From positions 1 through 53,835 of the IMG/VR virus record IMGVR_UViG_3300033067_000444: a stretch of 53,835 nucleotides of DNA; one strand, written 5' to 3'. Below are positions 1 through 53,835 of the stretch, one piece after another. The translations under genes and the position numbers were made by a program. The DNA comes from a virus. Lineage: Duplodnaviria > Caudoviricetes. A model generated the notes under the pieces. The model worked only from the letters and a program-made list of their open reading frames with translations. It searched no databases and was not told the origin of the DNA. Every line of letters begins with the position of its first letter. Position 1 is the first letter of the stretch.

Positions 1-3000
1 CACGGTGCGCTACTTCCCGGCTTAATCTTACCATTGCGATTGTCACGGATAACAGACCCGCCGCCCATGTCCATACCATCAGGATTGACCTTGGTAGTGG
101 GCAGTTCACCCAACGCCGCCTTAACCTTATCGCTTTGCTCGGATAACGGCTTATCCCACAGTAGATATTCGTCTTGTTCGGGAGCTAGTTCAACTTCGTA
201 GAGTCTGCCTTTTTCTTTTTTATATTCAAGAACAGGTCTATCGCCGTTATCTAAAAGCGACAATGCATCTCTAGCAACAGCCTTGATGCTCTTACTGCCG
301 CCGTAGTTGGCTACGTCAAGAAGGCTTTCTCTGGTATTTTCAACATTTCCTGATTCTTGATTTAATATGTAAGCGAGATAATGTTCTGGCACATCAGTAT
401 TAAGTAATTCGCCGTTTACATAATTCTCACCTGTTGTTAGTTTTTCTTTGTAGAATTCAGCAACATCCCTGCTCTCGGCAAAATAATGCCCGTAACCATA
501 AGCTTGTGCACCCTCGCCCGTACCGATCTTGCTGGTATCGAACTTATTGTGATCGTGCGGGGAACCGTGGAACGCTTTCTGGTCGAGCAACGAACCCCCA
601 GGCATTCCTACCTCGTTACCCGTGATACCGAACCACTCCAACGTTTTACGAAAATCGTCTTTGATCTGCTGCGGTGCCTCTGGCCTGGTGGCCATTTCGT
701 TCAATGCTTCAAGGTAGAAGTGACCGCCTTCATGGATCACGGAGGACAGATCGGAACCGTCGAGCAAGGTCATCGTGAACGTGTTTGGATTAAATCCAGC
801 ACGGTTGCCTTGGAACAACGGCAATCCCTGCATGATCTTGTCACGCATTTCTGGTGTGATATCGAGGGAGGGCTGCTCTCCGGCTTTGCTTGGGTCTGTA
901 GGCAGTTCATGCTGCGCGATCGCGTCTTGCGCCTCCGCGTAGGTATCGAAAGTAGCCGCTCTGTTCTCGCTAGAAGTCCATACCCCTGTGGTAGGATTCT
1001 TCAGATACATACCCGCGCTTTCTTGAAATACTCTGAGTTTTCCGTCTTCTCCTTCGACAGTTCGTAATATGTTCTTTGTTTCTCCTGTCATGTTCAAAGG
1101 GGTTACCTTGCCCCCTCCCAGTTTCTTCGAGACATCGTTCACGACTTGCGGAACAATACCGTCGTAGAAGGCTTTCATACCCTCACCGCCTACCTTCAGG
1201 TCGAGACCTTCCAACTTCACTGGGTAATCTCGTTCCCTGTTTATCCTCTCTAGCGCAGCTTGAACCGCCTCGTCCTCCGTTGCGTATCTGCCCGTGAAGG
1301 GTTTTCCGTGTAGTTGACCGGGAGGGATGACCGTAAAAGGTCTGTCCTTATCACTCTGCGGGTCTAAGGATATGTCATACCCATCAGGTAACGCGGTTAC
1401 CGGTTTGTCTTCAGTCTCGACTAGTTCGACTACCTTATTCGCTATTTCCTTGCCGATTACATCCGGTAATTTGTCCTTGGTGTAATTACCTGCCAATACT
1501 TTTTCTTCATTGTTGTCGAAGACTTGTATGTCGTAGGTGTCCCCTGTTCCGCGTCGCGCTTCTATGCTCTGTATTTGTTTACTCAAATCGTAACGCGCAG
1601 CCTGCTGCTCGCCTGTAGTCCACGCGATCTTGTCGAAACCGTTTTCGGCTGCGTAGCGCATGAGACGTTTTACGGCAAGGGCTGTCCATGATTTCGTGTT
1701 CTGCACGAAAGGGCCGGAAGGGGTGCTACCTCTGACTTTCTCCCTTAGTTCCGCACGGCGTTTGTTAACTGTCAGTAACTCTGCTTCGATAGTAGTTCTC
1801 TTGCTTACAGATACCGTGTATACCTTGTCGCCTAACTCTTTCGCTTTGCCGTCTAGTGCTCTAAGTTCCTCCTGTTCTTGCGGTGTCAGACTGGCGAACC
1901 CCTTATCCCGCCCTTGTTGCGCCCAGTCGGATTGTATCTCTTCGACGAATAGGACTTTCTGCCCGTTTGCCTTTCTTTCATTTACGCGAACATGTGCGAG
2001 GATATTGGGCTGGTTGAAATGTGATGAGCGAAACCTCACATCTGCGGTTACGGCTTGCGGTATTATCGCTGCTCTGGCCTCTTCCTCCGTCTTGTACGAC
2101 TGTATACGCTCACCGCCCGAGAACAGTCCCCATCTTCCGCTATCTAATTTCCTTACTTCCTGCGAAGCCGCAAACTTCTTGGCAGGCAACGTAAGCAGTA
2201 ACTCGCGGTAGTTCCCGCCGCCTGGTAGGACGTAGTTATCAAATTTTGTTTCACTGAATTGCGACGATCCACGGCTTACCCGTTCGAGAGCTTCTTGCAA
2301 AGTGTCGAAGGTTACCCGCCCGGTGAAGCCTGGTACGTTTATCTCGTACTGCCCATCTTCGATCTGTATTATCTCGCCCAATGAGCCATAGTTCTGCCCT
2401 TCAGGGTCATCGGATCTGTAGAGGGTGTAAATCTCTGGCTGGTCTTCGTATTCCTGCACCGCAATCGGTGTCGCCGTACCGCCTAACACTGTCTCGTCAA
2501 TCCGCACCCCGTTCTCACGAACAAAGTTCTCGATATCGGCAACGGGTACTTTGCCTTCCTGAGTGTCGAGCCAGTCCATCAAGCCGACTGCTTCAATTTC
2601 TTCCTTCTTGAATTTACCTTCTTTCTGCCGTGCTTCGATCCACGACTTAGCCTGTTCCGGTTTGATGTTTCCATCCTTACCGGCTACCTTCCGTAAGTTC
2701 GGTATCTCACGTTCGAGTGCTGAATAGAAAGCGGACTGTTTCAAGATATTCGGATCACTGGAAAAGTCGCCGTTGTTGCCTATCGCGGATTTGATTTGAT
2801 CGGGATCGAATGCTATCCAAGATTCCACATTTTCATCAGTGTCCGGGTCGCGCTCAACTATGACAGCCCCGTCATAGCCCAATTCTTTTAACTTGCTGAC
2901 GAAGAAACTGCCCTCGTCTTCTTCATCAAACATGCCCCATATCTGATCTGTGGATATGTTACGCATTAATCTAGGGTTGATTCCCTTCTCAGTTAATGCT

Positions 3001-6000
3001 TCTATAACAACGTCATCGATGAATCCTTTTGTAAGATCGATAACATTACGCATCTTCAGATACACCGGCATTACGTTAGCGTCTCGTGCAGAACCTCCTT
3101 GAACGCTAAAGCCTTCCGCGAATTTCTTATCTTGAGTAAAGAACATCCCCGCGCGGCGAGTATCCCAGGTGCCAAACTCGTTTGAATTAGCGCCAGGTGA
3201 TCCCACGACAAACTCGTTGAAGTCCCCTTTAGTGCCATGGTAAAAAACTAAGGGCGGTGCCATCTTTCTGTCACCACGGCTGCTCGTAGGCCACTGTCTC
3301 GATTCACTGTCTCCAAACCACTTCCAGAAATTACGAATTCCTTCTTCTGTTGGGTAGATTGGTCTGCCTTCACTGTTCAACGTGGTACGTTCTATCCCGT
3401 CAACGTTTAGGGTTTCGGGTAGTTTCGCTGTTTGAAAGAAGGTGTCGTAAGCCCTGCTATTGAATCTCTTAGACAAGGGTACTACATTTCCTTCATCGTC
3501 ATAGGTCACTGCGTCCAGTAATTTTCTATTGTTCTTTGTGTTCTTGTATGCGTACTCTTTGCCATCATCGTAACCGAGTTCGTTTATAGAATTGGCGTCC
3601 CACCATAAATCTTTCAGTTCTACCCGCTGCGCTATTATCCTGTAACCACCTGGGATACTTTCACCCTCCAGCTTCGCGTATTCTCTGGATGGGCTTACCC
3701 AATCACCGTTTCGTATGAAGTCATCTTTAACATTCTTAGGTACTGACCGGAATACCGCTATACTTCGCGCCTTTTTCTCGAGCGCTCTGTTTACGGTGTA
3801 AAAGGAATTTCGCTCAGTAACGTCGTTTTGGTAGTAATGCGGATGGGTCCAGTAGTCGTCAGGTACGATACCTGCATCCTTTATAGTAGCGAGGTTATAG
3901 TCCTCACGATTAGGAGCTTGATGCATCATCCGGTATTCGCTACCTGAGAGATACCCCTTGTCCTTGGCAGCCTCGTACACCATTTCTTGCGCTCGAACCA
4001 TGTCCCCGTCTGCTACTGCTTTCAAGTAATCTGCGTCAATCTTTTGGTTCTTCGCTGACTGCTCCAGCCCCCCGTCTTCGATCTGCATCTTCGAGAAATT
4101 CAGCGGCAGGCGTGTATATAATTCAGAAGGTAGTATCCCCTCCTTGGCAGCGTTGACCGCATAGAATTCACGAAACGGTACAGCGTAGACCGCATTTACA
4201 GCACGGTTGAAACGTTTTGCGGAGTTCATACCTGTAAGTATCTTGTCGTGAACTTCCTGAGCATCACGCGCGAAAGCCTCGACTTTGTTCTCGTGCGCTT
4301 TCAGGTACTCCGTGTAATCTTTACCGTCGTTCTGTGGCTTCGCTGCGAATTCTTCCCGTGTTAACACCGGTTGTGTCGTGTTGATAATCTCTTTCGCTTT
4401 CTCCGCAAAAATCTCTTTCTGCTGCTGGAAGAATGTTTGTGATTCTGAATATGTCATGCCTTCTGGATCGGTACGCAATTGGTTCAGGATCATCGGTTCC
4501 AGCTTGGAGCCTGCCAGGTATGTGGCATAGTCCTCTATCGGTATGCGAACTTCTCCGCCGGTTGCGAGTGCCGTCTGTAAGTCCCTTGCCACTACTGGCA
4601 TGTTCTTGATGAATTCTTCCGGTTTGATTCCAGATTGTTGCAGGGACTCTTCCAAGTGCTTCGCGTCAACGAACACCTCCTTGATTCCGCTGTGTTCGTC
4701 GGCCATCGTCTTGACAAACTCTTTGAATGCGGAAGGTGATTCCTTGCGGAGTTTATTGTTGACGATTTCCTCCGACCATTTCTGTAACGCGGCTTGTTGT
4801 TCTTCCGCACTGACTGCTTTGCCGATGTTGTTCAAGTGTGCGTCTGCTGCTTTTTTCAAAGCGTCGTCAGTAGAAGCGCCTTGCTTCCTTGCGGGTACGC
4901 CTGCCTGTACCGCTGCGCCCATCGTACCGCCGGTTACAATACTCAACGCCGCTGCTTCGGGTACTCCCTCATCCCAAGGTTTACCCAGTGCGATGTTCTG
5001 GAAGATTTGCTCAGTGACTCCTTGGGGTAGCTCTTCCACTATCCCCTCGGATACGAACCCTCCTGCCAATCTTGCAGCCAAGGAGAGCGGTACGTTTGAC
5101 TGTTGCATCTTACCGATAACTTTTTCTCTCAGTTTTCCTGTTGCAAGTAGTATGTCGGGGTCTTCTATCCCTATACGTTGCGCGAACTGTGCTCCGGCTG
5201 CGCTTATGAGCGTACCGATTACCCCTGTACCCCACGCCAACGCCGCTCCTTTTGCGTCGAGTTCCTTGTCGGGGGATTGTGTTCTTATCTGTTCTGCTGC
5301 GCTCCCTGCCATCGTTAAACCTTCGCCTATAGGCACAGCGACAGCGGCAGGTACGAAGGGCATCAAGGCGCGAGCGTACACGCTACCAAGGTACATGCTT
5401 GGAAGACTCACGCCTACTAATTCTACTACTGCCGCAGGGTTCTTAACGGCGGCCTCTATCGTCCCGAGAAAACCCTTCGCGTTCTCTACCTCCTTCAAGG
5501 CAGCTTGCATCTCGGGGGTGTACATGTCCGTCAGCGTCTTCGATATCTTGGGGAAATCTATACCGTTAGCTTCCAATGTTTTGCCTAAACCTCCCAAGTC
5601 GGCAGGATTCAGATCCGCTATACCTACCGCGCTCTGTGTAAGCATCGTCAGCCCCTTCGCCAACATGATGGGTGTGTCTTCTGTGGCGCTCCTGAAGAAC
5701 GTTTCAAGAGTCTTCAAGTGCCCAATGTCTTTACCAACCAGTTCGGAATTACCTTGTACCCCGAGGTACTTGGCCACTGCCGGGAAGTTTTTGATTAAAT
5801 CTTCGGGGTCATGTTCTTTGTAGAAAGCGGTATCTTCAACCTGGGGGGTGACAAGACCAGGGTTAACCCCTGTCTTCGCTGCTACGTCACGGCGGTGCGC
5901 TGCCAGTGCTGTGTCTGACTTGATACCTTTGCGAATGGCCAGACCTAGAACATCGGCTTCCACCTGCCTCGGTGTCGGGCCCGTGTCAACTGGTTGAAAT

Positions 6001-6191
6001 TCTGGTACGGGCTTGCCTTCCAATACCGCAAGAGACGCGGCTACGTCGTCGGGGATTCCAGTTTTCTGTTGCGTGATATCCTTACGGATTATCGGCGCAG
6101 CGGGTATTTTGTCCAAAGGCTTCGCGGTATTCGCACTTGATTCAAGAAACGACAACGACGCTGCAACGTCGTCGGGTATTGTTTTCGCCAT
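1..6191 (-). CDS. Giant ejected/internal virion polyvalent protein, 5' part (continues through the junction to 49929; ~3,365 aa total)
   Basis: Manual translation from ATG 6191 (MAKTIPDDVAASLSF...) stays open to position 1. Contains an ART-like module (FRSVP..GDWVSPSREYA), an ART-PolyVal-like module (YHGT 3242-3231, GMFFT, GYDGAV), an EEIQSDW domain (1943-1923), a HEGGH zincin motif (734-720) and a HGSPH ART-like module (569-555). Position after two internal virion genes matches T7 gp16/Bbp10-like genes. Confidence 0.9.
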   Translation of the reverse strand, partial: MAKTIPDDVAASLSFLESSANTAKPLDKIPAAPIIRKDITQQKTGIPDDVAASLAVLEGKPVPEFQPVDTGPTPRQVEADVLGLAIRKGIKSDTALAAHRRDVAAKTGVNPGLVTPQVEDTAFYKEHDPEDLIKNFPAVAKYLGVQGNSELVGKDIGHLKTLETFFRSATEDTPIMLAKGLTMLTQSAVGIADLNPADLGGLGKTLEANGIDFPKISKTLTDMYTPEMQAALKEVENAKGFLGTIEAAVKNPAAVVELVGVSLPSMYLGSVYARALMPFVPAAVAVPIGEGLTMAGSAAEQIRTQSPDKELDAKGAALAWGTGVIGTLISAAGAQFAQRIGIEDPDILLATGKLREKVIGKMQQSNVPLSLAARLAGGFVSEGIVEELPQGVTEQIFQNIALGKPWDEGVPEAAALSIVTGGTMGAAVQAGVPARKQGASTDDALKKAADAHLNNIGKAVSAEEQQAALQKWSEEIVNNKLRKESPSAFKEFVKTMADEHSGIKEVFVDAKHLEESLQQSGIKPEEFIKNMPVVARDLQTALATGGEVRIPIEDYATYLAGSKLEPMILNQLRTDPEGMTYSESQTFFQQQKEIFAEKAKEIINTTQPVLTREEFAAKPQNDGKDYTEYLKAHENKVEAFARDAQEVHDKILTGMNSAKRFNRAVNAVYAVPFREFYAVNAAKEGILPSELYTRLPLNFSKMQIEDGGLEQSAKNQKIDADYLKAVADGDMVRAQEMVYEAAKDKGYLSGSEYRMMHQAPNREDYNLATIKDAGIVPDDYWTHPHYYQNDVTERNSFYTVNRALEKKARSIAVFRSVPKNVKDDFIRNGDWVSPSREYAKLEGESIPGGYRIIAQRVELKDLWWDANSINELGYDDGKEYAYKNTKNNRKLLDAVTYDDEGNVVPLSKRFNSRAYDTFFQTAKLPETLNVDGIERTTLNSEGRPIYPTEEGIRNFWKWFGDSESRQWPTSSRGDRKMAPPLVFYHGTKGDFNEFVVGSPGANSNEFGTWDTRRAGMFFTQDKKFAEGFSVQGGSARDANVMPVYLKMRNVIDLTKGFIDDVVIEALTEKGINPRLMRNISTDQIWGMFDEEDEGSFFVSKLKELGYDGAVIVERDPDTDENVESWIAFDPDQIKSAIGNNGDFSSDPNILKQSAFYSALEREIPNLRKVAGKDGNIKPEQAKSWIEARQKEGKFKKEEIEAVGLMDWLDTQEGKVPVADIENFVRENGVRIDETVLGGTATPIAVQEYEDQPEIYTLYRSDDPEGQNYGSLGEIIQIEDGQYEINVPGFTGRVTFDTLQEALERVSRGSSQFSETKFDNYVLPGGGNYRELLLTLPAKKFAASQEVRKLDSGRWGLFSGGERIQSYKTEEEARAAIIPQAVTADVRFRSSHFNQPNILAHVRVNERKANGQKVLFVEEIQSDWAQQGRDKGFASLTPQEQEELRALDGKAKELGDKVYTVSVSKRTTIEAELLTVNKRRAELREKVRGSTPSGPFVQNTKSWTALAVKRLMRYAAENGFDKIAWTTGEQQAARYDLSKQIQSIEARRGTGDTYDIQVFDNNEEKVLAGNYTKDKLPDVIGKEIANKVVELVETEDKPVTALPDGYDISLDPQSDKDRPFTVIPPGQLHGKPFTGRYATEDEAVQAALERINRERDYPVKLEGLDLKVGGEGMKAFYDGIVPQVVNDVSKKLGGGKVTPLNMTGETKNILRTVEGEDGKLRVFQESAGMYLKNPTTGVWTSSENRAATFDTYAEAQDAIAQHELPTDPSKAGEQPSLDITPEMRDKIMQGLPLFQGNRAGFNPNTFTMTLLDGSDLSSVIHEGGHFYLEALNEMATRPEAPQQIKDDFRKTLEWFGITGNEVGMPGGSLLDQKAFHGSPHDHNKFDTSKIGTGEGAQAYGYGHYFAESRDVAEFYKEKLTTGENYVNGELLNTDVPEHYLAYILNQESGNVENTRESLLDVANYGGSKSIKAVARDALSLLDNGDRPVLEYKKEKGRLYEVELAPEQDEYLLWDKPLSEQSDKVKAALGELPTTKVNPDGMDMGGGSVIRDNRNGKIKPGSSAP

Positions 6192-6202: not shown

Positions 6203-7930
6203 TTATTTAGGTTGTTTCTTGTTTATCGTTTCCCAGGCACGAATCAACTCTGCATCGGTATACGGCCTACTTCCTTTTGGAGCGTATTGCCGTATGCGTT
6301 GCGCGTGTGCGTATGCCGCAAGTATATCATCATTGTTGTACCCTTTCATCAATTGCCCAAATGTTTTTGGGTATGATCTGGTAGGGTCTGCGCGGTAGGC
6401 TTCCTTCGTAGAGTTGAAGATCTTAGAGTTGAAGATCGTACCGACCTGCACGTATTCTTCGTTGGCCTTGTTGACAATGTTCATCTTGTCTTCAAGGGTC
6501 ATAACCTTGCCGGGGTTTGCTGCCTTCCACTCGTCTTTGTTCTTCTCCACGGCACCCTTGAAGGCCATCTTCAGTTGTGGATCTTTCGCACTCTTTGGCA
6601 TACCCATGTTAATCAGGTCGGGGTCAATTGTCGCCTTGTCCGCAGCTTTGTCCTTAGAGGCGGACTTTTTCATCAAGGCATTGATCTGTTTCTCCGGTAG
6701 TATGCCCATGTAACTGGCGATCTCTTGTGGAGAAGGTGGTACTTCGCTGTCGTCAATCCGTTGGGATAATTCGGCATACAGTTGCATCCCGGCGTATGTC
6801 GTCGTTGTGCCCTTCTTACCGGCTTCTCCTTGCCCAAGTGCGACGAGTTGATTACGTATCTTTGTTGCCAGTACCGGATCGGTTGCGTCGAGGTTCTTCA
6901 ATGTATCAGACTTCAATGCATTCTCTACGCCTATGTTCCTAGAATCCAGTACCACAGAACCTTGTACCTCGCGTCGATCTTTCTCTCTTGCTCTGACTCG
7001 GTCGTCGTAGATAGCGTCCGCTACGCGCATAGTTTCGAGCGACTTGCCTTCTGTCGCCTTCAGTTTTTCGGTAAAGATATCGCTCTCGGACTTACCCGCT
7101 ACGTGCATCGCGAAGAGTTTCTCTGCGATGTCGCGCCCCTCTTTCGTAGCAATCTGTGGTCTTAGTGTATCCCTTGCATGTCCTACCGCTTTGGTGTCCA
7201 TCTCTCCTTCAACCGTTGTGAGGTATTCTTCAGCCGCCTTGGGTTGATCGTTCTGCATGTAGCCTTCGATCACTGCCTGGTGTGCCACCGTCCTCGCGTC
7301 AAGCAAGAGTTTTTGACGAAGTTGAGAATCAGTAATCCCGTTCTTCACCACATATTCGGCCACCGTTCTGTCGATGTTATTGAGTTCCCGGTTGACTGTA
7401 ACCGGGTTATTGTAATTGGCCCCGATCGTGTTGGCAGATACTTCGATGTTCGCCTTATATACTTGTCCTCTGTGCTTCAGATCCTCGTTCATCGCGTGAC
7501 TCAGGAACCCGGCTTCGTAGTCTACTTGCTGCCGTTTTGCCGCTTGTTCAAACTTACCACGAGCGAGAGGCCCGAGTTGTTGTCCAAGTTCACCAACTTT
7601 GGTCTTGAACTTGTCTTGGTATTTCTGCATAACACCTGGTTTAGTCGCGTCTCCGTTCTGGAGTTGTGCGTACCCGTCAGGGCCTACAGTCATTTCGTTC
7701 TGTGCTTGTTTGAGTTGTACGAGAGCATCCTGTGCATGTAACGCCGCTGTCTCGTGCGCCCACTGATCCACCCGGTAGGCGGTATTCTCTATAACCCTGC
7801 CCGACTGCTGCATCACTGCACCTAGGCGCTGTTCCGCTTCGCCTACTTGGTTAGGATCGTAAGTCGCTACCTGTGTACTCGGCTGTAGTCTGGCACGCCC
7901 GATATCGTTCGCGCTTGGCAGGATAGGCAT
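6203..7930 (-). CDS. Internal virion (ejection) protein, gp15-like position
   Basis: 575 aa, helical, Ala/Gln/Lys-rich; lies between the small internal protein and the giant protein. Confidence 0.7.
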   Translation of the reverse strand: MPILPSANDIGRARLQPSTQVATYDPNQVGEAEQRLGAVMQQSGRVIENTAYRVDQWAHETAALHAQDALVQLKQAQNEMTVGPDGYAQLQNGDATKPGVMQKYQDKFKTKVGELGQQLGPLARGKFEQAAKRQQVDYEAGFLSHAMNEDLKHRGQVYKANIEVSANTIGANYNNPVTVNRELNNIDRTVAEYVVKNGITDSQLRQKLLLDARTVAHQAVIEGYMQNDQPKAAEEYLTTVEGEMDTKAVGHARDTLRPQIATKEGRDIAEKLFAMHVAGKSESDIFTEKLKATEGKSLETMRVADAIYDDRVRAREKDRREVQGSVVLDSRNIGVENALKSDTLKNLDATDPVLATKIRNQLVALGQGEAGKKGTTTTYAGMQLYAELSQRIDDSEVPPSPQEIASYMGILPEKQINALMKKSASKDKAADKATIDPDLINMGMPKSAKDPQLKMAFKGAVEKNKDEWKAANPGKVMTLEDKMNIVNKANEEYVQVGTIFNSKIFNSTKEAYRADPTRSYPKTFGQLMKGYNNDDILAAYAHAQRIRQYAPKGSRPYTDAELIRAWETINKKQPK

Positions 7931-8523
7931 TAATTAAAACCCCCGCGATTTATACCCCGTTGAAAGTCGATAAACGATGGCGTGTTACCTGATACGCCAC
8001 GCGGGGTTGTCATACCAAAGTACGCCATGCTACCAGCGTCGGCAAGGCCGCTAAGTGCGGTTGAGAACGCTTGCATCTTGCTTGCTTTCGCTGCGACGTT
8101 ACCAGCTTTCAGTGCTTGGTAGCCTTCGTATCTTGTTGATGCTGCTTGCAGTCGCTCCGTACTGGCCTGTGATTCCGCGTTGTACGTCTCTGTCTGTGCG
8201 GCTCTTTCTCCTTCCACTGCAAGACCTGATATTACTTTAAGCACTGTGGGATCAAGCGTCCCGCCGCCTGATGCTCCTGCAATGGCCAATGCCCTCGACT
8301 GAAGTATCTCGGATTGTCTTTTTTGTTCGAGGGATGCGTATTGCCCTGCCGCTTGTGTCTGCGTCGCATTTTGCTCAAGCTGCGCCGCTTGGAACTTAGC
8401 AAGCTCATTTTGCGCCCTGGCTTGTTGCTTCTGCGCCTTGGCTTGTTTCAGCGATCCCATTACACTCAGCGCAGTTCCTCCTGCGCTCATCCCTGCCATT
8501 GCGAATGGTAGTGCTGCTCCCAT
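7930..8523 (-). CDS. Small internal virion (ejection) protein, gp14-like
   Basis: 197 aa; Gly/Ala-rich hydrophobic N-terminus followed by a Gln/Ala coiled coil, typical of podophage pilot proteins; synteny. Confidence 0.7.
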   Translation of the reverse strand: MGAALPFAMAGMSAGGTALSVMGSLKQAKAQKQQARAQNELAKFQAAQLEQNATQTQAAGQYASLEQKRQSEILQSRALAIAGASGGGTLDPTVLKVISGLAVEGERAAQTETYNAESQASTERLQAASTRYEGYQALKAGNVAAKASKMQAFSTALSGLADAGSMAYFGMTTPRGVSGNTPSFIDFQRGINRGGFN

Positions 8524-31776: not shown

Positions 31777-32847
31777 TCAATCTCCTATTAATCCCGAAAA
31801 ATCATCCCTATCCCGTTCTGCGCCAAGGTATGCACTAATAAACGCCATTGCTGTCTGCGCTTGTATAGCGTTGCCGTAACCTTTTAACCTCATGACACGC
31901 GCTTCTTGCGTTGCATTGGCATTGATCGGTTCGCTTGTATCGCTGCTATACACCATTCCTCTGGCAATCCCATCAACCAGCGGCTTAATGCCGGATTCAA
32001 TTGGCCGGTATTTATTGTCTCGGCAGTAGATCCAGTCAACCATACCGTTCTGCCCAACAAGCAATTTATCGGCACTCTCTGTTCGCTCCCGTCCTTGTAA
32101 TCCCGTGACGTTGCTGTCGGCCATCCCGCTAACGCAACCTGCTGAGATAACGGGACTCCTGTATCGTGCGGTCTCGGCGGCTTCGATCCCCTGCTGTGAT
32201 CTTGGCTCATTGGCGTACACCATCCCGCGTACATCTGAACTTGTTCCGCTAAATTTCCCGGACTGAGAGATGTTCGGCCTGTCGCTAATCTCGCCGCCGT
32301 GCGCTTCTCCATTGATTCTTCTGATCGCTCGTTTATCACCGTCACCGATGGAGTTAGCCACCCAGTACAGTCGCTGTCTGATGTGCGCTGCGCCGATGCT
32401 GTGTGCGCCCAATACACAGTGCCCAACGGCGTAGCCTTCTGCTTCCATGTTTGTCTGTAAATCATCGAGCCATCCATGCTTAATTGCTCCTTCAACTTGT
32501 TCACCAAAGATCGCGTTAGGCTTGCACTGTCTGACCAATTCAAGGAAGTGCGGCAGAAGGTGGCGTTCGTCTGATTTTCCAAGACCTTTACCGGCTGTGC
32601 TGAATGGCTGGCATGGTAGGCTTGCTGTCCAGATTGGCCTATCTCCCCATCCTGCTCGGTTAAGACAATAGTCCCAAGTTCCGATGCCGCTAAAGAAATG
32701 CACTCTGCCGAATCCCCTGAGGTCGTTTGGCGTAACTTCCGTAATTGATCGTTCATCTACTTCCCCTTGTGTGATGTTTCCATTTTTAATTAACTGTCTT
32801 AACCATGCCGCTGCTTTTGGGTCAAATTCGTTATAGTAGGCTTTCAT
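31777..32847 (-). CDS. C5 cytosine DNA methyltransferase, alpha chain
   Basis: Motif I FFSGIG, IV PCQPFS, VI EQV, VIII R.RLYW, X RL.GYGNAI; motif IX absent from this frame. Confidence 0.9.
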   Translation of the reverse strand: MKAYYNEFDPKAAAWLRQLIKNGNITQGEVDERSITEVTPNDLRGFGRVHFFSGIGTWDYCLNRAGWGDRPIWTASLPCQPFSTAGKGLGKSDERHLLPHFLELVRQCKPNAIFGEQVEGAIKHGWLDDLQTNMEAEGYAVGHCVLGAHSIGAAHIRQRLYWVANSIGDGDKRAIRRINGEAHGGEISDRPNISQSGKFSGTSSDVRGMVYANEPRSQQGIEAAETARYRSPVISAGCVSGMADSNVTGLQGRERTESADKLLVGQNGMVDWIYCRDNKYRPIESGIKPLVDGIARGMVYSSDTSEPINANATQEARVMRLKGYGNAIQAQTAMAFISAYLGAERDRDDFSGLIGD

Positions 32848-48156: not shown

Positions 48157-49479
48157 CTACACGATAACTACAGCGAATAGCTTTATCTTGTAAGATCCAC
48201 CCGAACGGTAGGTATAACCGCCTATCAAGTAATTCTCGTGTTCGAGAGACGCAATATCTGGTGGGTACAGGAAATCCACGCCTGACGCATCAATCTCATA
48301 ACTGTTCGACTTAGCCGGGGTAGTGGTTCCTGAGTACGACACCAGGTTGATACTCATTGGAACCTTCTCCTGGACCGCTACTATTGCCACCATTTTACTG
48401 CTGTGCGATACGCAATTCGCGAGAGAGAATCTGTTTGGTACACCGGAATATGTTACGGATGTCTCGTCGATGTACGCCGTGGTAGATGTCGTTACTCCTG
48501 CCGCGTCGGTGATGTCGAAGGCAGCGAAACCCATGTCTTTGTCTGAAGCCGAACGATAAATGTAACCGCCGCCGAAAACCATCGCTTTCGCAGTCGTCAT
48601 CGTGGCGATTCCCCACAGGTGAAAACGCCGGTTGTTGTCCGGGTCCGTGGTTATGTTGTACTGGGAGTCATTGAAATACCGCGAAGCTGTGTTAAAAGTT
48701 ATCGCCTGCCCGGATATTGCGAATGACCCCACGGTGGATTGGTAGCCGCCTGCCGCGCCGTTGGCATAATCGGCCACTGCGAGAAAGCCAAGTGATGTAG
48801 TCGATACCGATACTTTAGGGCAAGCCACTCCGGTTAAGGAGGGAATAGCTGGTGTTCCGTAAGTAATGGCATCTGCCACACCAATCGTTACGACTTGGCA
48901 CTGTACAGTGTAAGCCACATCTGCCGTTGGTGAGCTTATGATTACGTTGCTCGAATCTATTTTCTGTACATCAAGGAAAGAACGTTCAAAGTCGGGGAAG
49001 TGTGTCGTACCTATCGAAACAGGATCGGTGAAGGTAACCGTCGGGGCGGTGACATTTGCCACTCGTACCCAAAGATCGTCGGACGTACTCAGTTTGTAGG
49101 CTAACAAGACCTTGTTATCTGTAAGACCTATACACCCTACGGAGATAACGTTAACGTCGAGGGTATCCAGTAGTGCTACTTCCGCCTCTTGCGATAGGAT
49201 TGGCGATACCAACGTAACCAGCTTATAGTAGAGTTTCGTCGCGTCAACTATGTTGCGGTAAAAGACTAGAACAGAAGTATTATCTACCCTGGCGATGTGA
49301 GGATCTATGCGGTCTAAACCGGGAGTGACTACCATCGGGGTAGTAAAGTTTGAAGGGAGCTGTACGTCTTCACCTCCTACCCCTGCACCCACGACACCGC
49401 TACATCTATTAGTCGCACGGGTATCTAGGAGTGTTTCTGTCCTGCCTAGATAGTTGAGTACGGGCTTGAGTTTAAACAT
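48157..49479 (-). CDS. Beta-propeller-like putative tail/receptor-binding protein
   Basis: 440 aa, Thr/Ser/Val-rich, repeated four-strand blade-like segments (e.g. IT(Y/F)GT). Confidence 0.5.
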   Translation of the reverse strand: MFKLKPVLNYLGRTETLLDTRATNRCSGVVGAGVGGEDVQLPSNFTTPMVVTPGLDRIDPHIARVDNTSVLVFYRNIVDATKLYYKLVTLVSPILSQEAEVALLDTLDVNVISVGCIGLTDNKVLLAYKLSTSDDLWVRVANVTAPTVTFTDPVSIGTTHFPDFERSFLDVQKIDSSNVIISSPTADVAYTVQCQVVTIGVADAITYGTPAIPSLTGVACPKVSVSTTSLGFLAVADYANGAAGGYQSTVGSFAISGQAITFNTASRYFNDSQYNITTDPDNNRRFHLWGIATMTTAKAMVFGGGYIYRSASDKDMGFAAFDITDAAGVTTSTTAYIDETSVTYSGVPNRFSLANCVSHSSKMVAIVAVQEKVPMSINLVSYSGTTTPAKSNSYEIDASGVDFLYPPDIASLEHENYLIGGYTYRSGGSYKIKLFAVVIV

Positions 49480-49927
49480 CGTAATTACCAGGAGGTATAT
49501 TTATCGGGTAAGTCCGTATCGTGCCCCCAGTATTAGCGTCTCGTTTCATCGTAGCGAGTACCGCGTCCTTGGCTGACATGCCGGTATCCATGAACGCGAG
49601 AGCGAAGTCTCTACCGCTGCCTAACGCTATGCAATTCGTCAACCGAACGGGAGCCTTCCAGAATTCTTTATCATGTACAGCGCATGTAAAAAGTCTACAG
49701 TCATCTAGTACAAGCAATGTCGCCTCTACCTTTTCACCCTTACCCACATATTTACCCGCGAGGTAACTCTGTATAAGTATCTCAAAGTCTGAGGTGGCTC
49801 CCGCGCAGAAGAAACCTACGTCATTGCGGACGATTAGTTTATCTGCGTCGTCATCAATAATAACGTTATCTTGCGTGCGTCGCGAATCGTAAGCCACTAT
49901 CCCATTCTTGTAAGCGATTGTCGTCAT
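49472..49927 (-). CDS. Ntn-hydrolase (HslV/proteasome beta-like) protease
   Basis: MTTIAY...A.DSR, K33-like Lys, AG, GSG..FA, D.NTGG; N-terminal Thr nucleophile. Confidence 0.82.
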   Translation of the reverse strand: MTTIAYKNGIVAYDSRRTQDNVIIDDDADKLIVRNDVGFFCAGATSDFEILIQSYLAGKYVGKGEKVEATLLVLDDCRLFTCAVHDKEFWKAPVRLTNCIALGSGRDFALAFMDTGMSAKDAVLATMKRDANTGGTIRTYPINIPPGNYDV

Positions 49928-49928
49928 G

Positions 49929-52900
49929 TTAATCCTTTGGTGGCCCGAATAACAAAGCCGGTAATATTGAAGCGCCTTCTACGTCGCCGTTTTCTACCGC
50001 CATGATACCCTCGACGGTGTTATTGATTTGTCCCGCTGGATAGTGTAGCACAGCACCGGCCACGTTGTTAAGGCTTTTGAACATTGGGAGATCGGCTTCG
50101 CCTTGGTTAACCTGTACGCCTGCCTTATACAGATCACCAAAGAAACGCAACCCGGCAGGGCCTTGGTAGCCGTACTGGTCTCCGCCAGTTGCCACGCCTA
50201 CCGCTGCGCCTATCTCACGCAACAAGATCATTTGCCCAAGCATGTAACTTATTTGTTCATTGGCTAGTTTCTTCGCCCAACATTCAAGGTCGTCTCCGCA
50301 ATTGCCTTTAATCGATTCCTTCAAAGCCACCGCGAACAAGACAGGGATCACGTTCAACACGATGAGGTTATTTGCCATCAACATAACTTCGGCAGGCTTC
50401 ATGAAATTCGTCTTGCGTACCGTCTCGATGTTCAAGTTGTACGTAGCGCTAAAATACGAATAGAAGTTCGTGAGTATCTTGTTCAGTGGTGAACCGCGTT
50501 GCACTCTGGCCAGATCTTTGGTCATACCGCTTGACTGCGAATCGATCACGGCCTGGTCTGCAAGGCGTACCGCGTGCTCCTCCATCGTTTTGCGTTGTGT
50601 TTCATCCACCGCGTTCTCGTAACCGACTTCTGCCAGTCCCTTATTGTACGCGCCAATCCACGTAGGAATGTCCACAGTGCGTTGCATCTTGCCGATTAAC
50701 CAGAAGTAACTAGCGGTGAGATTCGACACACCCTCGCCCGTTCTGAGTGTATTCAGGACTTCGTTAATCTCCCGGTTCATTGTCGTTGCACGATTCTTCA
50801 TGAACGTCGAGCGGCTATCGGCAAATTCTGCGGAGTCGTTTGGGCTGGTCAGGAATTGCAGAATACCCTGAGATACCCACTTCGGCCCGACGCGAACGTA
50901 TGATTGCGCCAAACCGGAAGGTTGCAGTAAAGCCGTCGTAACCCGCCAGCCCATACCGACAATCGTGGAACCCATACGCAACCGGTTGATAGCGGCCTCT
51001 GTTGCGTTCTTCGCAGGTGCGTCGCCCGTTGCAATGTCCATAACAGTGTCACGCATTTCTCGTAAAATCTCTGTACCGTAGTGCTCTCGTATCGGACTGT
51101 CAAGATGTCGCAGAACACGGTTAGCGTCTGTGAGCCAAGGCTGCCATGACAGGCGATGTATCACCTCGTTGATGTGCTGTGGGATCACGTTGAACGACAG
51201 TAACAGCGGCCTGCCGATAACTTGCTTCGAGCGTTCCTGCGTGTAACCGTTACGGGTAGCCGCCGCGCCGAATGCGCCTTTCATGCCCATCCGCAAATCG
51301 GTTACAGCTTCCAGTGACTCGCTGCGAGTAGAAAGTTCCGCGTCGTACTTGGCAGGGAAGTACCCGCCAGGGTACACACCAAACTTTGTTGTAACGGTAG
51401 CTGGTTCGATCCACAAAGGTTCTACCCCCGTCATCTTGCGTTCAAGAGCGGCAATTTGTTCCTTGTAAGTACCGACGTAATACCATGTGGCTTGCACGAA
51501 GTCCCACTCGGGTTTCGTCAGAGTGTCGAGGATGCTCTGTGCTTGAGTGATCGACAACGCTCGTCGTCCCGTAATCCCGCCGTCTAGTAGTCTTTGCCGG
51601 TTACCCTCGTTGCCCCAGTTCATCGCGAACATGATTCTCTGTTCATGCGTCATACTGATATCTGTACCAGGAACTAGACGCTTCTTGGCCGACAGGTTCA
51701 TGAAACCTTGATCGAGTTTTATCATTTTGAACAGAGAAGCAACTTTCTCCGCTGCTTGCTGCCGCATTTCGGTTTCCATGTCACCCGCTTCGTTCATCGC
51801 ACGAGCTAGCAAATTCCACATTGTTCCATTATCTTTGCCGCCATCCATCTCGCGGATGATCGAACTAAACTTGCGGTGCCCTGCGGTCATCTGCCGGAAC
51901 CACTGACCCGTCTTGCCGAGGGTGTCGGTCGGTGTCGCACGCTCTTCTACGGTACGGTTCGCGTTCTCATGTATCGAATACTCCGCTTCGGCTATGCGTT
52001 CGTTGAATTCTTTACGATCTTTGGCCGTGAGCAGTTTGTCCTTGTACCGGCCAAGGTGTTCGATTTGTTTGATCGTGTCCTTGAGTCCGCGCAATTCTTC
52101 AAGGGTCATATCCTTGTAGTTCTTGAGTTTCGATTTTTCGATTGTGTCCACGTCGATAGCAGGCTGGAACCCGTTTGCTTCTTGCTCTTCTATCCAGGCG
52201 GTCAAGGATTTGTTCTTGTCGACTTCCCGCAGGGGTAGATTCTTAAACTCGAAAGGCTTGAGTAAGTCAACGATTTGTTCTAAGTAATCGTGGTGGATCA
52301 CCTTGCCCAGTTTTCGATTGTCGAATTTGCGAACGTATTTCAGAATGCTGTCAACTTCGTTCTTCGCGTCACGTGCCACGGAGTACAGTTTGTTGTTAAG
52401 CAGTGCGGCTCTCTGTGCTTCGGCTGCACCAGCACGGTCTTTCGGCGCACGTTTCAATGCTTCCTTGTTCGCCTTTGTCTCAGCCCGTGCATACTGCCCT
52501 GGTCTGATATCGCGGATTGCTTTGCCTGCGATGGCCTGTTCCGCTGCTTGCCTGGCGGCTTTAACCAACTGCGAGGACGTGGCTGAGGTCTTGAGTAACA
52601 TCTTCAAACCGGTGGCCATGAATCGCGCTCTGGCCTCGTTGTGTACGGCTTCGTCTGCTGCTGCGCTTAATGCGTTGTCGTCAACCAGATCCCCGTATTG
52701 TTCAAGCATTCGTTTATCGACTTCAGCGGCTACCTTGTCGCGTGTTGGTTCGCTGTCGTTCAGTGCATTGATTAACGCTTCGCCGCTTGAGAATCCGGTT
52801 AACTGTGCGGCAAGATCGAGCGCGATACCATCTTCCGAAGTCATACCTCTCAATTTCTTCATATCGACGTTCGGCATCAGTTCCAAGACTTCGGCCTTGT

Positions 52901-53835
52901 TCAGTTTCGCCTTGACTTCTGCCTCGATCACTTGACCATCTTCGTTGACGTATTCACCTTTCGCGAAGTACGACTTGGCGCGTTCTACGGGTTCCTGTGC
53001 GATATCTTGTTCGACTTCAGTACGCAACATCTTGCGCTTGGTGCGTGCTTCGTTCTGTAAAGACTTGAGTGCTTTCGTCCGTGCGCCCGTCAACCATTTC
53101 ATGTCGCGGACACTTCGGGCATCCAGTTCGCTTGTCGCTTCATCGGCTGACCGTCTGCCTTCGTCAACGTATTCTTGAAACTGCTTATCGGTAACGCCTG
53201 CTTCTTCCGACGTGGCGAATAGAGGTGCGTAACTTCTCGCCTTCTGCGCTTCGGCTATCGCTTCATCCGAGGCGATCAAACGGTCGAACACTGCACGGAT
53301 ATCGTCGTTCAGTTTCCCCGCGAGTGGATTGTTCCGCAGGAATTCTTTCATCGACTTGTAAATGTTCAACATCCACGCACGGAAGCGCGCGAATACTGGC
53401 TGCATTTCAAGTGTCGGTGCCTTGCCCTCGAGTGCGTAACGCTCCCATGACTGCGCCCACTGTTCATGGTAAGGGCGTTTCTGGTCGAGGGTCATGTTGT
53501 TCCAGATTTCTTCTGGTGTTCTACCCGGTGGAAGTTGTCCTGGTTGTGGTGTTTCGCCGCCTTGGTAATACCTATCGGTGATTGTAATATCTTCATCAGA
53601 AAATATCACATAGTTGTAAGCACCCTCACCCTTGGCTCTGCTGGAACCGTCGAGGTATTTGATACCGCGAATGCCTAGCGAGTGAAGGTATTCGGAGGCG
53701 GCTCTTTGCGAGCCTTTGGTTGAAGTAAGTCTCGAATAGACATTCTCACCAGTGCTGTCCGTACCAAGATCCTTCGTCATACGATCAACGTCTTTCTGCG
53801 TCAGATCGAACCTTGAATCACCTGATACAAGTATC
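49929..53835 (-). CDS. Giant ejected polyvalent protein, 3' part (continuation of 6191..1)
   Basis: Frame is open from 53835 to the track's 53780 start. Contains the end of the HGSP module (GI.GIKYLD...NYVIF), the peptidase C-half (HEQWA..WE.Y..EGKAP) and a long helical C-terminus. Confidence 0.9.
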   Translation of the reverse strand, partial: ILVSGDSRFDLTQKDVDRMTKDLGTDSTGENVYSRLTSTKGSQRAASEYLHSLGIRGIKYLDGSSRAKGEGAYNYVIFSDEDITITDRYYQGGETPQPGQLPPGRTPEEIWNNMTLDQKRPYHEQWAQSWERYALEGKAPTLEMQPVFARFRAWMLNIYKSMKEFLRNNPLAGKLNDDIRAVFDRLIASDEAIAEAQKARSYAPLFATSEEAGVTDKQFQEYVDEGRRSADEATSELDARSVRDMKWLTGARTKALKSLQNEARTKRKMLRTEVEQDIAQEPVERAKSYFAKGEYVNEDGQVIEAEVKAKLNKAEVLELMPNVDMKKLRGMTSEDGIALDLAAQLTGFSSGEALINALNDSEPTRDKVAAEVDKRMLEQYGDLVDDNALSAAADEAVHNEARARFMATGLKMLLKTSATSSQLVKAARQAAEQAIAGKAIRDIRPGQYARAETKANKEALKRAPKDRAGAAEAQRAALLNNKLYSVARDAKNEVDSILKYVRKFDNRKLGKVIHHDYLEQIVDLLKPFEFKNLPLREVDKNKSLTAWIEEQEANGFQPAIDVDTIEKSKLKNYKDMTLEELRGLKDTIKQIEHLGRYKDKLLTAKDRKEFNERIAEAEYSIHENANRTVEERATPTDTLGKTGQWFRQMTAGHRKFSSIIREMDGGKDNGTMWNLLARAMNEAGDMETEMRQQAAEKVASLFKMIKLDQGFMNLSAKKRLVPGTDISMTHEQRIMFAMNWGNEGNRQRLLDGGITGRRALSITQAQSILDTLTKPEWDFVQATWYYVGTYKEQIAALERKMTGVEPLWIEPATVTTKFGVYPGGYFPAKYDAELSTRSESLEAVTDLRMGMKGAFGAAATRNGYTQERSKQVIGRPLLLSFNVIPQHINEVIHRLSWQPWLTDANRVLRHLDSPIREHYGTEILREMRDTVMDIATGDAPAKNATEAAINRLRMGSTIVGMGWRVTTALLQPSGLAQSYVRVGPKWVSQGILQFLTSPNDSAEFADSRSTFMKNRATTMNREINEVLNTLRTGEGVSNLTASYFWLIGKMQRTVDIPTWIGAYNKGLAEVGYENAVDETQRKTMEEHAVRLADQAVIDSQSSGMTKDLARVQRGSPLNKILTNFYSYFSATYNLNIETVRKTNFMKPAEVMLMANNLIVLNVIPVLFAVALKESIKGNCGDDLECWAKKLANEQISYMLGQMILLREIGAAVGVATGGDQYGYQGPAGLRFFGDLYKAGVQVNQGEADLPMFKSLNNVAGAVLHYPAGQINNTVEGIMAVENGDVEGASILPALLFGPPKD

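Follow-up and report, generated by a model that had tools for sequence, protein, structure and literature searches.

Why should one giant phage protein carry a similar glutamine-ending peptide at every boundary between its modules? The question is raised by a tailed-virus DNA of 53,835 bases (Caudoviricetes; IMG/VR record IMGVR_UViG_3300033067_000444; this whole stretch is called the window below), in which a gene on the minus strand encodes a modular protein of 3365 residues. An earlier note on this DNA had pointed to six such boundary peptides, likened them to the cleavage sites of viral polyproteins and proposed that several effectors may be released from the protein upon injection. In our analysis a short motif consisting of L, F or Y, any residue and glutamine ([LFY]xQ, called the tag below) is conserved at domain junctions, being found at all six joints of the window protein and at nearly every joint of 58 related giant proteins. 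The tag stands at the joints whatever modules adjoin it, is selected at the protein level and co-occurs with an embedded HExxH unit that resembles zincin metallopeptidases. That the tags are the cleavage sites of this zincin-like unit, the cutting itself being the part that we infer, is in our judgement an even call.

Translation with a script that reads through both window ends yields one minus-strand open reading frame (ORF) with a single terminal stop, and all six motifs of the earlier note lie in it where that note had placed them. The order of parts is an N-terminal backbone, cargo modules 1 to 3, the N-lobe of the HExxH unit, cargo module 4, and a C-terminal backbone that includes the C-lobe of the unit. 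Tag 1 closes the N-terminal backbone (L709-E-Q711, followed by S; LEQ/S at 4067-4056, tag at 4059..4067, on the minus strand like the other five), tag 2 separates modules 1 and 2 (F918-F-Q920, followed by T; FFQ/T at 3440-3429, tag at 3432..3440), and tag 3 separates modules 2 and 3 (L1150-K-Q1152, followed by S; ILKQ/S at 2747-2733, tag at 2736..2744). Tag 4 lies directly before the zincin-like N-lobe (L1792-F-Q1794, followed by G; LFQ/G at 818-807, tag at 810..818), tag 5 follows that lobe (L1869-D-Q1871, followed by K; LLDQ/K at 590-576, tag at 579..587), and tag 6 ends module 4 (Y2153-Y-Q2155, followed by G; YYQ/G at 53570-53559, tag at 53562..53570).

Within a single protein the motif is barely informative, being present at 29 of the 148 glutamines of the window protein. 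A position matrix derived from 79 junction sites ranks the six window sites 1st, 2nd, 5th, 6th, 15th and 19th of these 148 glutamines; it fails to separate them from the others, and the tag needs its exposed-linker context to be informative. Module boundaries can be located without reference to the motif: the ends of BLAST high-scoring segment pairs (HSPs) against 23 relatives pile up at residues ~700-717, 910-955, 1140-1157, 1770-1800, 1850-1876 and 2140-2185. Under an unbiased cluster rule, five of the ten clusters of HSP ends in the window protein contain [LFY]xQ; Q920 is 11 residues outside its cluster, and clusters at ~400, 444-489, 1904-1933 and ~2390 are devoid of the motif.

Comparison with relatives (15 IMG/VR loci and 34 further proteins with the same modules in other orders) is far more telling. 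Module order is shuffled among them (in L008, for example, module 4 stands at the head and the C-terminal backbone is preceded by a new module), and their junction peptides include NILNQ/G, NILNQ/S, ELAQ/G, TLAQ/S, DLGQ/S, VLNQ/S, EFMQ/G, LLFQ/K and VYGQ/S. In the column of tag 1, 15 of 20 relatives have Q preceded two positions upstream by L or F (SLTQ/G in Caulobacter phage Jess A), and tag 2 corresponds to LFFQ/K, VYGQ/S or SLTQ/K before a shared LPETLNVDG lead-in. In an anchor test of 59 proteins, [LFY]xQ was sought within a set distance upstream of module starts, with each upstream context counted once. Within 12 residues it was found at 14/14 starts of module 4, the HGSP module (background 0.088), in every case one residue upstream, at 34/34 zincin starts (background 0.083), and at 20/20 starts of module 3 (FYSALEREI), there as [LFY]xQ/S (background 0.082). 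Wider distances gave 10 of 11 starts of a PF18814 module (25 residues; background 0.18) and 20 of 24 ART-PolyVal lead-ins (45 residues; background 0.32). A permutation test of 24 proteins found the motif in 92 of 183 clusters of HSP ends, the null distribution having a mean of 56.5, a standard deviation of 6.2 and a maximum of 77 in 2000 draws; many of the tag-free clusters are alignment breaks within backbones. The earlier note had made conservation or enrichment of the motif at the boundaries of homologues the test of its proposal, and by the anchor and permutation counts the proposal survives strongly.

At 91 unique sites, the position two before the glutamine is occupied by L in 73, F in 11 and Y in 7, and the one directly after the glutamine by S in 39, G in 15, K in 10, E in 7 and Q in 6. 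The constant hydrophobic residue and glutamine are as the earlier note had them, whereas the position that follows is broader than its S, G or T. In the family as a whole, 17.7% of all glutamines are preceded by L, F or Y at a distance of two residues. At the joint with the C-terminal backbone, Phi-x-Q/G(G/K) occurs in 10 of 13 contexts with an insert, versus none of 15 direct fusions of zincin and backbone. Glutamine is encoded at the tags by both CAA and CAG, and leucine by all six of its codons; this synonymous variation indicates selection on the peptide rather than on DNA microhomology, which is thereby ruled out as the cause of the tags. The tag before the zincin is also kept in lineages that are 26-38% identical in the backbone: LLNQ/N in Pseudomonas phage AF, AYNQ/G in Cobetia phage Carin1, ALNQ/G in Xylella phage Usme, TLNQ/G in Xanthomonas phage CP2, LLRQ/E in a Vibrio phage, EFFQ/R in an Octadecabacter virus, PLFQ/G in a Nostoc phage, KFYQ/G in Bordetella phage BPP-1 and LLAQ/G in Jess A.

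The presence of the tag follows the presence of the HExxH unit. When 1.84 billion cluster representatives were searched with module 2 of the window protein, its ART-PolyVal (ADP-ribosyltransferase, ART) module, 5592 proteins matched at E<=1e-3, of which the best 150, each representing a cluster at 50% identity, were examined; 22 of the 150 carry the unit. About 15 residues past an IKSA motif, ART-PolyVal modules terminate in a tail that follows the pattern x-I-[L/R]-x-Z. Tails are uniform within a protein and differ by lineage (DIRFS(R), PSILxS, DITRR, SILED, NIRKxN..GRFAS, RIDFSG and SLTDA/LCDA in proteins P0039-P0062), which suggests that each lineage of polyvalent proteins has its own junction code. 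By a strict rule, Z is glutamine in 41 of 46 tails from proteins with the unit (two more, ILNQ and IVRQ, were mis-parsed) versus 4 of 344 from proteins without it; by the majority tail of each protein, the counts are 19/21 versus 3/124; and by a looser rule they are 42/46 versus 30/345 (Fisher p 3.5e-32, uncorrected for kinship). When kinship was taken into account on a FastTree phylogeny of 248 ART cores from which the tails had been excluded, 13 phylogenetically independent pairs differing in the unit were obtained; the tail goes with the unit in about 11 of them and against it in 0.1, and 2 show no difference in the tail (median sign-test p 0.001).

This association holds over at least three backbone classes. 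Twelve of the 22 unit-bearing proteins have a BPP-1-like C-terminus, one has a C-terminus like that of MW202426 and nine have neither, and tails ending in glutamine number 13/14, 0/1 and 29/31 in these classes, respectively. The pair formed by MW202426 and P0011 is instructive: MW202426 possesses modules 1 and 2 of the window protein (41-53% identity), has a C-terminal backbone in common with P0011, lacks both lobes of the unit, and has the joints LMFSR, DIRRS and DIRKS; P0011, on that same type of backbone, has the unit and has Q tags. Co-variation of tag and unit is what would be expected of a cognate pair of protease and site.

The HEGGH motif recognized in the earlier note is present at residues 1820-1824 (window 720-734) and belongs to the N-lobe (residues 1795-1871, 77 residues; 579..809, minus strand) of a conserved unit in two parts. 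The C-lobe is a block W..MTLDQKRPYHEQWAQSFERY... at the start of the C-terminal backbone, which in the window protein occupies about residues 2175-2290 (W..MTLDQKRPYHEQWAQSWERY...; 53157..53504, minus strand). In 21 of 22 representatives the N-lobe is accompanied by a match to a hidden Markov model of the C-lobe. The lobes adjoin in most of them; cargo is nested between the lobes in the window protein, P0038, P0064, P0130, P0126 and P0152, with tags on both sides of it in the window protein and P0130. H1820, E1821, H1824, E1828 (four residues after HExxH) and D1846 are invariant in 26/26 rows of our alignment (A2), and HExxH is kept in BPP-1, Jess A, AF, CP2, Carin1, OctBD1 and NspJY18. E1828 varies in distant lineages; E1828 and D1846, invariant in the close family, are candidate third metal ligands. 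A structural model of the contiguous unit of relative L009, with a predicted local distance difference test score (pLDDT) >=90 at residues 50-130, consists of a beta hairpin, an HExxH helix (45-64) and a helical C-lobe; its two lobes pack together, and the tag is in a poorly ordered lead-in. These features characterize the HExxH unit as a bipartite, zincin-like candidate peptidase.

A similar placement of tags is predicted for the window protein. In a model that covers residues 695-1890 (1196 residues), module 3 has pLDDT mostly of 70-90 and its confident fold begins at residue 1157, just past Q1152; residues 1789-1798, around Q1794 and between module 3 and the zincin hairpin, are below 50, as are all residues past the WFGI helix, including Q1871. 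Tags 3, 4 and 5 are thus in segments of pLDDT <50 between confident domains. Modules 1 and 2 were themselves modelled below 50 because their shuffled relatives align poorly, and for tags 1 and 2 the model is uninformative.

If the tags are recognized and cut by the embedded zincin-like unit, the giant protein would be a true polyprotein. Cutting would free four cargo proteins, of which two or three are ART-like, would split the chassis into N-terminal and C-terminal backbone parts, and would leave a two-chain peptidase with its lobes held together non-covalently. The scissile bond may be either the one after the glutamine, as at 3C and TEV (tobacco etch virus) protease sites, or the one before the hydrophobic residue, where thermolysin-like zincins typically cut; cutting may take place either in the head or after injection. 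A broader proposal, which we advance tentatively, is that the HExxH unit acts as an endopeptidase specific for the sequence [L/F/Y]-x-Gln, a bacterial-virus counterpart of the 3C and TEV proteases on a zincin scaffold, and that giant polyvalent proteins are programmable polyproteins with lineage-specific junction codes (x-I-[L/R]-x-Z, with Q for Z in the present case and S, D, R or another residue in other lineages) that co-evolve with the resident peptidase.

Several observations weigh against cleavage of the tags by the unit. Of the 29 [LFY]xQ occurrences in the window protein, 23 are away from joints, and some of these are conserved in the backbone (Q519, Q2584, Q2845, Q3035, Q3041); the earlier note had itself drawn attention to TFFQQ (Q589-591) and IFQN (Q398) in the N-terminal part, both of which are present, and TFFQ at 589 is likewise conserved in relatives. 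A clear tag before the zincin is missing in 5 of 21 representatives; MW202640 is exceptional in having EAAQ/R at that position, with no clear tag. The pattern for zincin starts missed P0007 and P0020, in which lysine replaces glutamine (PLFK/G, in PLFK/GERGSF), the joint of P0016 is ELKR/G (ELKR/GGKIP), with arginine for glutamine, and the joint of P0033 and the C-backbone joint of L008 are also without a tag. Such natural variants with lysine or arginine for glutamine (P0007, P0020, P0016) could report on specificity. In P0013, P0017 and P0038 a phosphoribosyltransferase (PRTase)-like insert (GRKYVLVDDVTT.GST) between the zincin lobes has no clear [LFY]xQ on either side, and P0038 combines the unit with a DIRFS tail. 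All zincin-bearing proteins could also share some other lineage factor.

The enzymology of the proposal is likewise unusual. Zincins usually read the residue after the cut (P1') and not the residue before it (P1), so that a zincin specific for glutamine at P1 would be atypical, and cuts at tags 4, 5 and 6 would free the 77-residue N-lobe, which must stay bound to the C-lobe. The isolated HExxH unit matches no Pfam family at E<=10, the polyvalent MPTase models included, and no PDB sequence; a Foldseek search of its model against the PDB gave nothing at E<=1e-3, the best zincin being anthrax lethal factor at E 2.2, and a wide fold search (VIA) was filled by coiled-coil matches to the long C-terminal helix (196-259). 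Prediction of a complex of the zincin unit, Zn and a 45-residue linker bearing the tag gave a score of 0.02 and a mark of 0.32, which speaks neither for nor against binding. The main texts on PhiXacm4-11 gp35, phi24B gp47, phage A4 and BPP-1 contain no data on fragments or processing of these proteins.

The alternative that survives best, possible although we consider it unlikely, is that the tags are never cut and act instead as a docking strand for a possibly catalytically dead HExxH unit, as a packaging or ejection signal, or as a seam for the recombination of cassettes. The break points of module shuffling fall on the tags, as they would on cassette seams; the N4 virion RNA polymerase, ArdC and TraC1 proteins with MPTase domains reportedly travel uncut (Iyer et al. 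2017, PMC5512222); the published main texts report no fragments of the family; and the residues proposed as third zinc ligand of the unit are candidates only. A seam at the DNA level, however, is contradicted by the synonymous codon variation at the tags, and even a seam of another kind has no need for an invariant glutamine that one free position separates from a hydrophobic residue, nor should it change to DIRFS, SILED and the like in proteins that have homologous modules and lack the unit. A dead enzyme is difficult to reconcile with an HExxH motif that is invariant, its glutamate included, in 26/26 rows.

Cleavage of the tags by a protease other than the embedded unit, whether from the host, hidden in the backbone or encoded downstream, is improbable. 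Serine, cysteine and threonine proteases, rather than zincins, typically select glutamine at P1 together with a hydrophobic residue two places ahead of that glutamine, the zincin-like fold is unplaced among known peptidases, and a suitable candidate adjoins the giant gene: directly downstream, on the minus strand at 49472-49927, is a gene for a protein of 151 residues (beginning MTTIAYKNG) that resembles N-terminal-threonine peptidases of the HslV/proteasome-beta type. Its match to the Pfam Proteasome family (PF00227), at E 2.2e-4, falls slightly short of the cut-off, and it has homologues in 102 phage records, many of them annotated as HslV family. This gene is missing, however, from 5/5 complete relatives that keep the tags (a positive control was run) and from all 22 loci of other phages checked, and in phiAH14a it is far from any giant gene. 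As a conserved reader of the tags the HslV-like peptidase is ruled out by its absence from the complete relatives; in this phage it might act on them. A host protease would leave the link between tag and unit across three backbone classes unexplained. No prohead protease was found among the 10 structural ORFs of the window and, apart from the HslV-like gene, no protease among its 20 further ORFs, so that the 30 ORFs offer no other protease family.

That chance alone produced the pattern, any motif of three residues with one left free turning up near some boundaries, is hardly credible: the 29 occurrences in the window protein, the ranks of its six sites between 1st and 19th and the 17.7% of family glutamines that fit would allow it, but it is refuted by the 68/68 module starts of three kinds with a tag within 12 residues (background ~0.08), by the 92 tagged HSP clusters against a maximum of 77 in 2000 draws, and by retention of the pre-zincin tag at 26-38% identity.

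Cleavage by the zincin-like unit would act on the following parts of the protein, all encoded on the minus strand. The N-terminal backbone (residues 1-711, ending in GGLEQ711; 4059..6191) is common to BPP-1 Bbp10 and Jess A gp039c (by blastp, window residues 479-717 correspond to Jess A 380-593 and window residues 469-707 to BPP-1 399-603) and matches PHROG 9880, 30335 and 2206 and, weakly, LPD22. Module 1 (GDWVSPSREYA; residues 712-920; 3432..4058), which the earlier note had taken for ART-like, is not borne out as such: it is 53% identical to residues 1168-1441 of MW202426 and matches PHROG 2579, 'ParB C-terminal domain' (E 9e-23), and in isolation it has no Pfam match at E<=10, its Atlas lead to ART-PolyVal being weak, at 0.77. 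Module 2, an ADP-ribosyltransferase-like ART-PolyVal module with an N-terminal lead-in (residues 921-1152; 2736..3431), was correctly labelled in that note and matches PF18760 over residues 980-1143 (E 8.9e-28; 98.3 bits, the Pfam gathering cut-off being 31.2). Module 3 (EEIQSDW; residues 1153-1794, 642 residues; 810..2735) matches PHROG 7348 (E 5e-10) and nothing in Pfam (E<=10), PDB sequences, Foldseek (including a search with the 695-1890 model) or Atlas; it is widespread among these giant proteins, always starting with Q/S-x-F-Y-S-A-L-E. Module 4 (HGSP) is nested between the lobes of the HExxH unit and is encoded in two parts, residues 1872-2064 at 1..578 and residues 2064-2155, ending in tag 6, at 53562..53835; it is placed elsewhere in L005, L007, L008 and others. 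For the ART-like nature ascribed to module 4 there is a weak match to PF18760 (E 2.6e-4) which, at 22.2 bits, is under the Pfam cut-off, and a blastp match to the ART module of Jess A (E 7e-4). The C-terminal backbone, including the C-lobe (residues 2156-3365; 49932..53561), matches PHROG 9880 at E 5e-297. PDB sequence searches with both halves of the gene gave no matches. Modules 1-3 are thus inserted between the N-terminal backbone and the HExxH unit, and module 4 in a loop between the lobes of the unit; the backbone of this predicted internal virion protein serves as the chassis for four inserted cargo modules.

The gene itself is divided by the ends of the window. Its first part (codons 1-2063 and the first two bases of codon 2064; 1..6191) appears as ORF 3..6191, open at its 3' end, and its second part (codons 2065-3365 with the stop, preceded by the last base of codon 2064; 49929..53835) as ORF 49929..53834, open at its 5' end. 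Across the window ends the reading frame closes exactly, codon 2064 being made up of two bases and one base. The 53,835 bases are the whole virus record, which is rated 100% complete, and the frame closes over the ends within the giant gene; the assembly is therefore a circular permutation without a terminal repeat, though its source class is 'linear'. Upstream of the giant gene are genes for a lysin-like protein (6203-7930) and an 'internal virion protein' (PHROG; 7930-8523) and, further upstream, the tail-tube genes and those for capsid protein, portal and terminase. The gene order fits the T7 gp16 type, with the giant gene placed after genes like those for gp14 and gp15 and before tail-fibre genes, and the homologous giant genes of BPP-1 and Jess A are likewise located behind gp14-like and gp15-like genes. 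Over the C-terminal ~1190 residues the window protein is 38% identical to BPP-1 Bbp10 and Jess A gp039c (blastp). Homology and gene order together predict that the giant protein is probably a large internal, ejected virion protein, in the position of T7 gp16, of a BPP-1-like podophage. Elsewhere in the window, on the minus strand, genes for a deoxynucleoside monophosphate kinase (PF21448; 29395-29970), an Nmad5 nucleotide-modification domain (PF18757; 30303-30794) and a C-5 cytosine methylase (31777-32847) are grouped, which hints at DNA base modification by the phage.

Among known systems, the sites of picornavirus 3C and potyvirus NIa (TEV) proteases, LFQ/G and YFQ/G or YFQ/S, are cut by chymotrypsin-fold cysteine proteases of eukaryotic RNA viruses. 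Like the tags they have glutamine at the cut, often a small residue after it and a hydrophobic residue two to three positions before it, and PLFQ/G and RYYQ/G of the window protein look alike to them; the likeness is one of analogy, and no chymotrypsin-fold cysteine protease domain was found in the window. The T4 prohead protease gp21, a separate assemblin-like serine protease, cuts internal proteins, including the Alt ADP-ribosyltransferase, at (L/I)-x-E, and also cuts the capsid protein. The T4 system resembles the present one in its head-packed, injected proteins, an ART among them, and in a site of three residues that has one of Glu/Gln type at the cut and an aliphatic one two positions ahead of the cut; it differs in that no prohead protease gene was found here.

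Proteins in the position of T7 gp16 (BPP-1 Bbp10, Jess A gp039c and PhiXacm4-11 gp35) share the gene position of the window protein, and Bbp10 and gp039c share the C-terminal backbone at the identity given above; the window protein, unlike them, is ~1300 residues longer because of its four cargo modules, no cargo module being recognized in BPP-1 and one in Jess A. A preprint on the Xanthomonas phage PhiXacm4-11 takes its 2300-residue homologue gp35 as an analogue of T7 gp16, and the BPP-1 capsid proteins are reported to be uncut (PMC3863775, the accessible text of which does not discuss Bbp10). The accessible literature on these homologues reports no junction tags or processing, and a literature search surfaced no account of a junction motif or of processing for this protein family and no mention of 'bbp10'.

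The closest precedent is the account of polyvalent proteins with a zincin-like MPTase hub by Iyer, Burroughs, Anand, de Souza and Aravind (2017; PMC5512222), in which self-processing is predicted and an analogy with the polyproteins of RNA viruses is drawn. At least two unrelated conflict-type domains on one polypeptide define a polyvalent protein, and the 3365-residue ORF has PF18760 and the weak match to LPD22; the giant proteins of relatives carry PF18814, PF11697, RadC, GNAT, PF18838 and PF18857. The window protein is thus like those described in 2017 in being a giant phage polypeptide with disparate conflict domains (ART-PolyVal, LPD22) and an embedded HExxH unit. It differs from them in that its unit matches no Pfam MPTase model, is bipartite, can have cargo nested between its lobes and has a tag that co-varies with it; the accessible text of the 2017 paper names no cleavage or junction motif, and the word 'linker' does not occur in it. 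For the earlier note this means that its tag at the joints stands, now joined by the co-variation with the HExxH unit; that the tags are cut, when they would be (on injection, in that note) and by which protease are proposals, and the general idea of a polyprotein was already in print. New, as far as the literature searched shows, are the specific tag and its near-universal presence where modules meet, the division of the HExxH unit into two lobes that can enclose cargo, and the way in which tag and unit vary together; what was known is the concept of self-processing.

The 2017 prediction of self-processing had no known cut sites, for which the tags now supply exact, testable bonds in cultured phages, together with one candidate enzyme. 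Candidate bonds are KFYQ/GGG in BPP-1 Bbp10 and SLTQ/G and LLAQ/G in Caulobacter phage Jess A. If the tags are indeed cut by the zincin-like unit, a compact Gln-directed protease and its tag would be added to the toolbox, and giant phage ORFs could be split automatically into functional units at annotation. For the phages themselves, such cutting would tell us which fragments of the injected 370-kDa protein work as free effectors and would explain the exchange of cargo cassettes between phages, and, if junction codes are lineage-specific and co-evolve with the resident peptidase, cargo cassettes would need re-tagging when they are moved between lineages.

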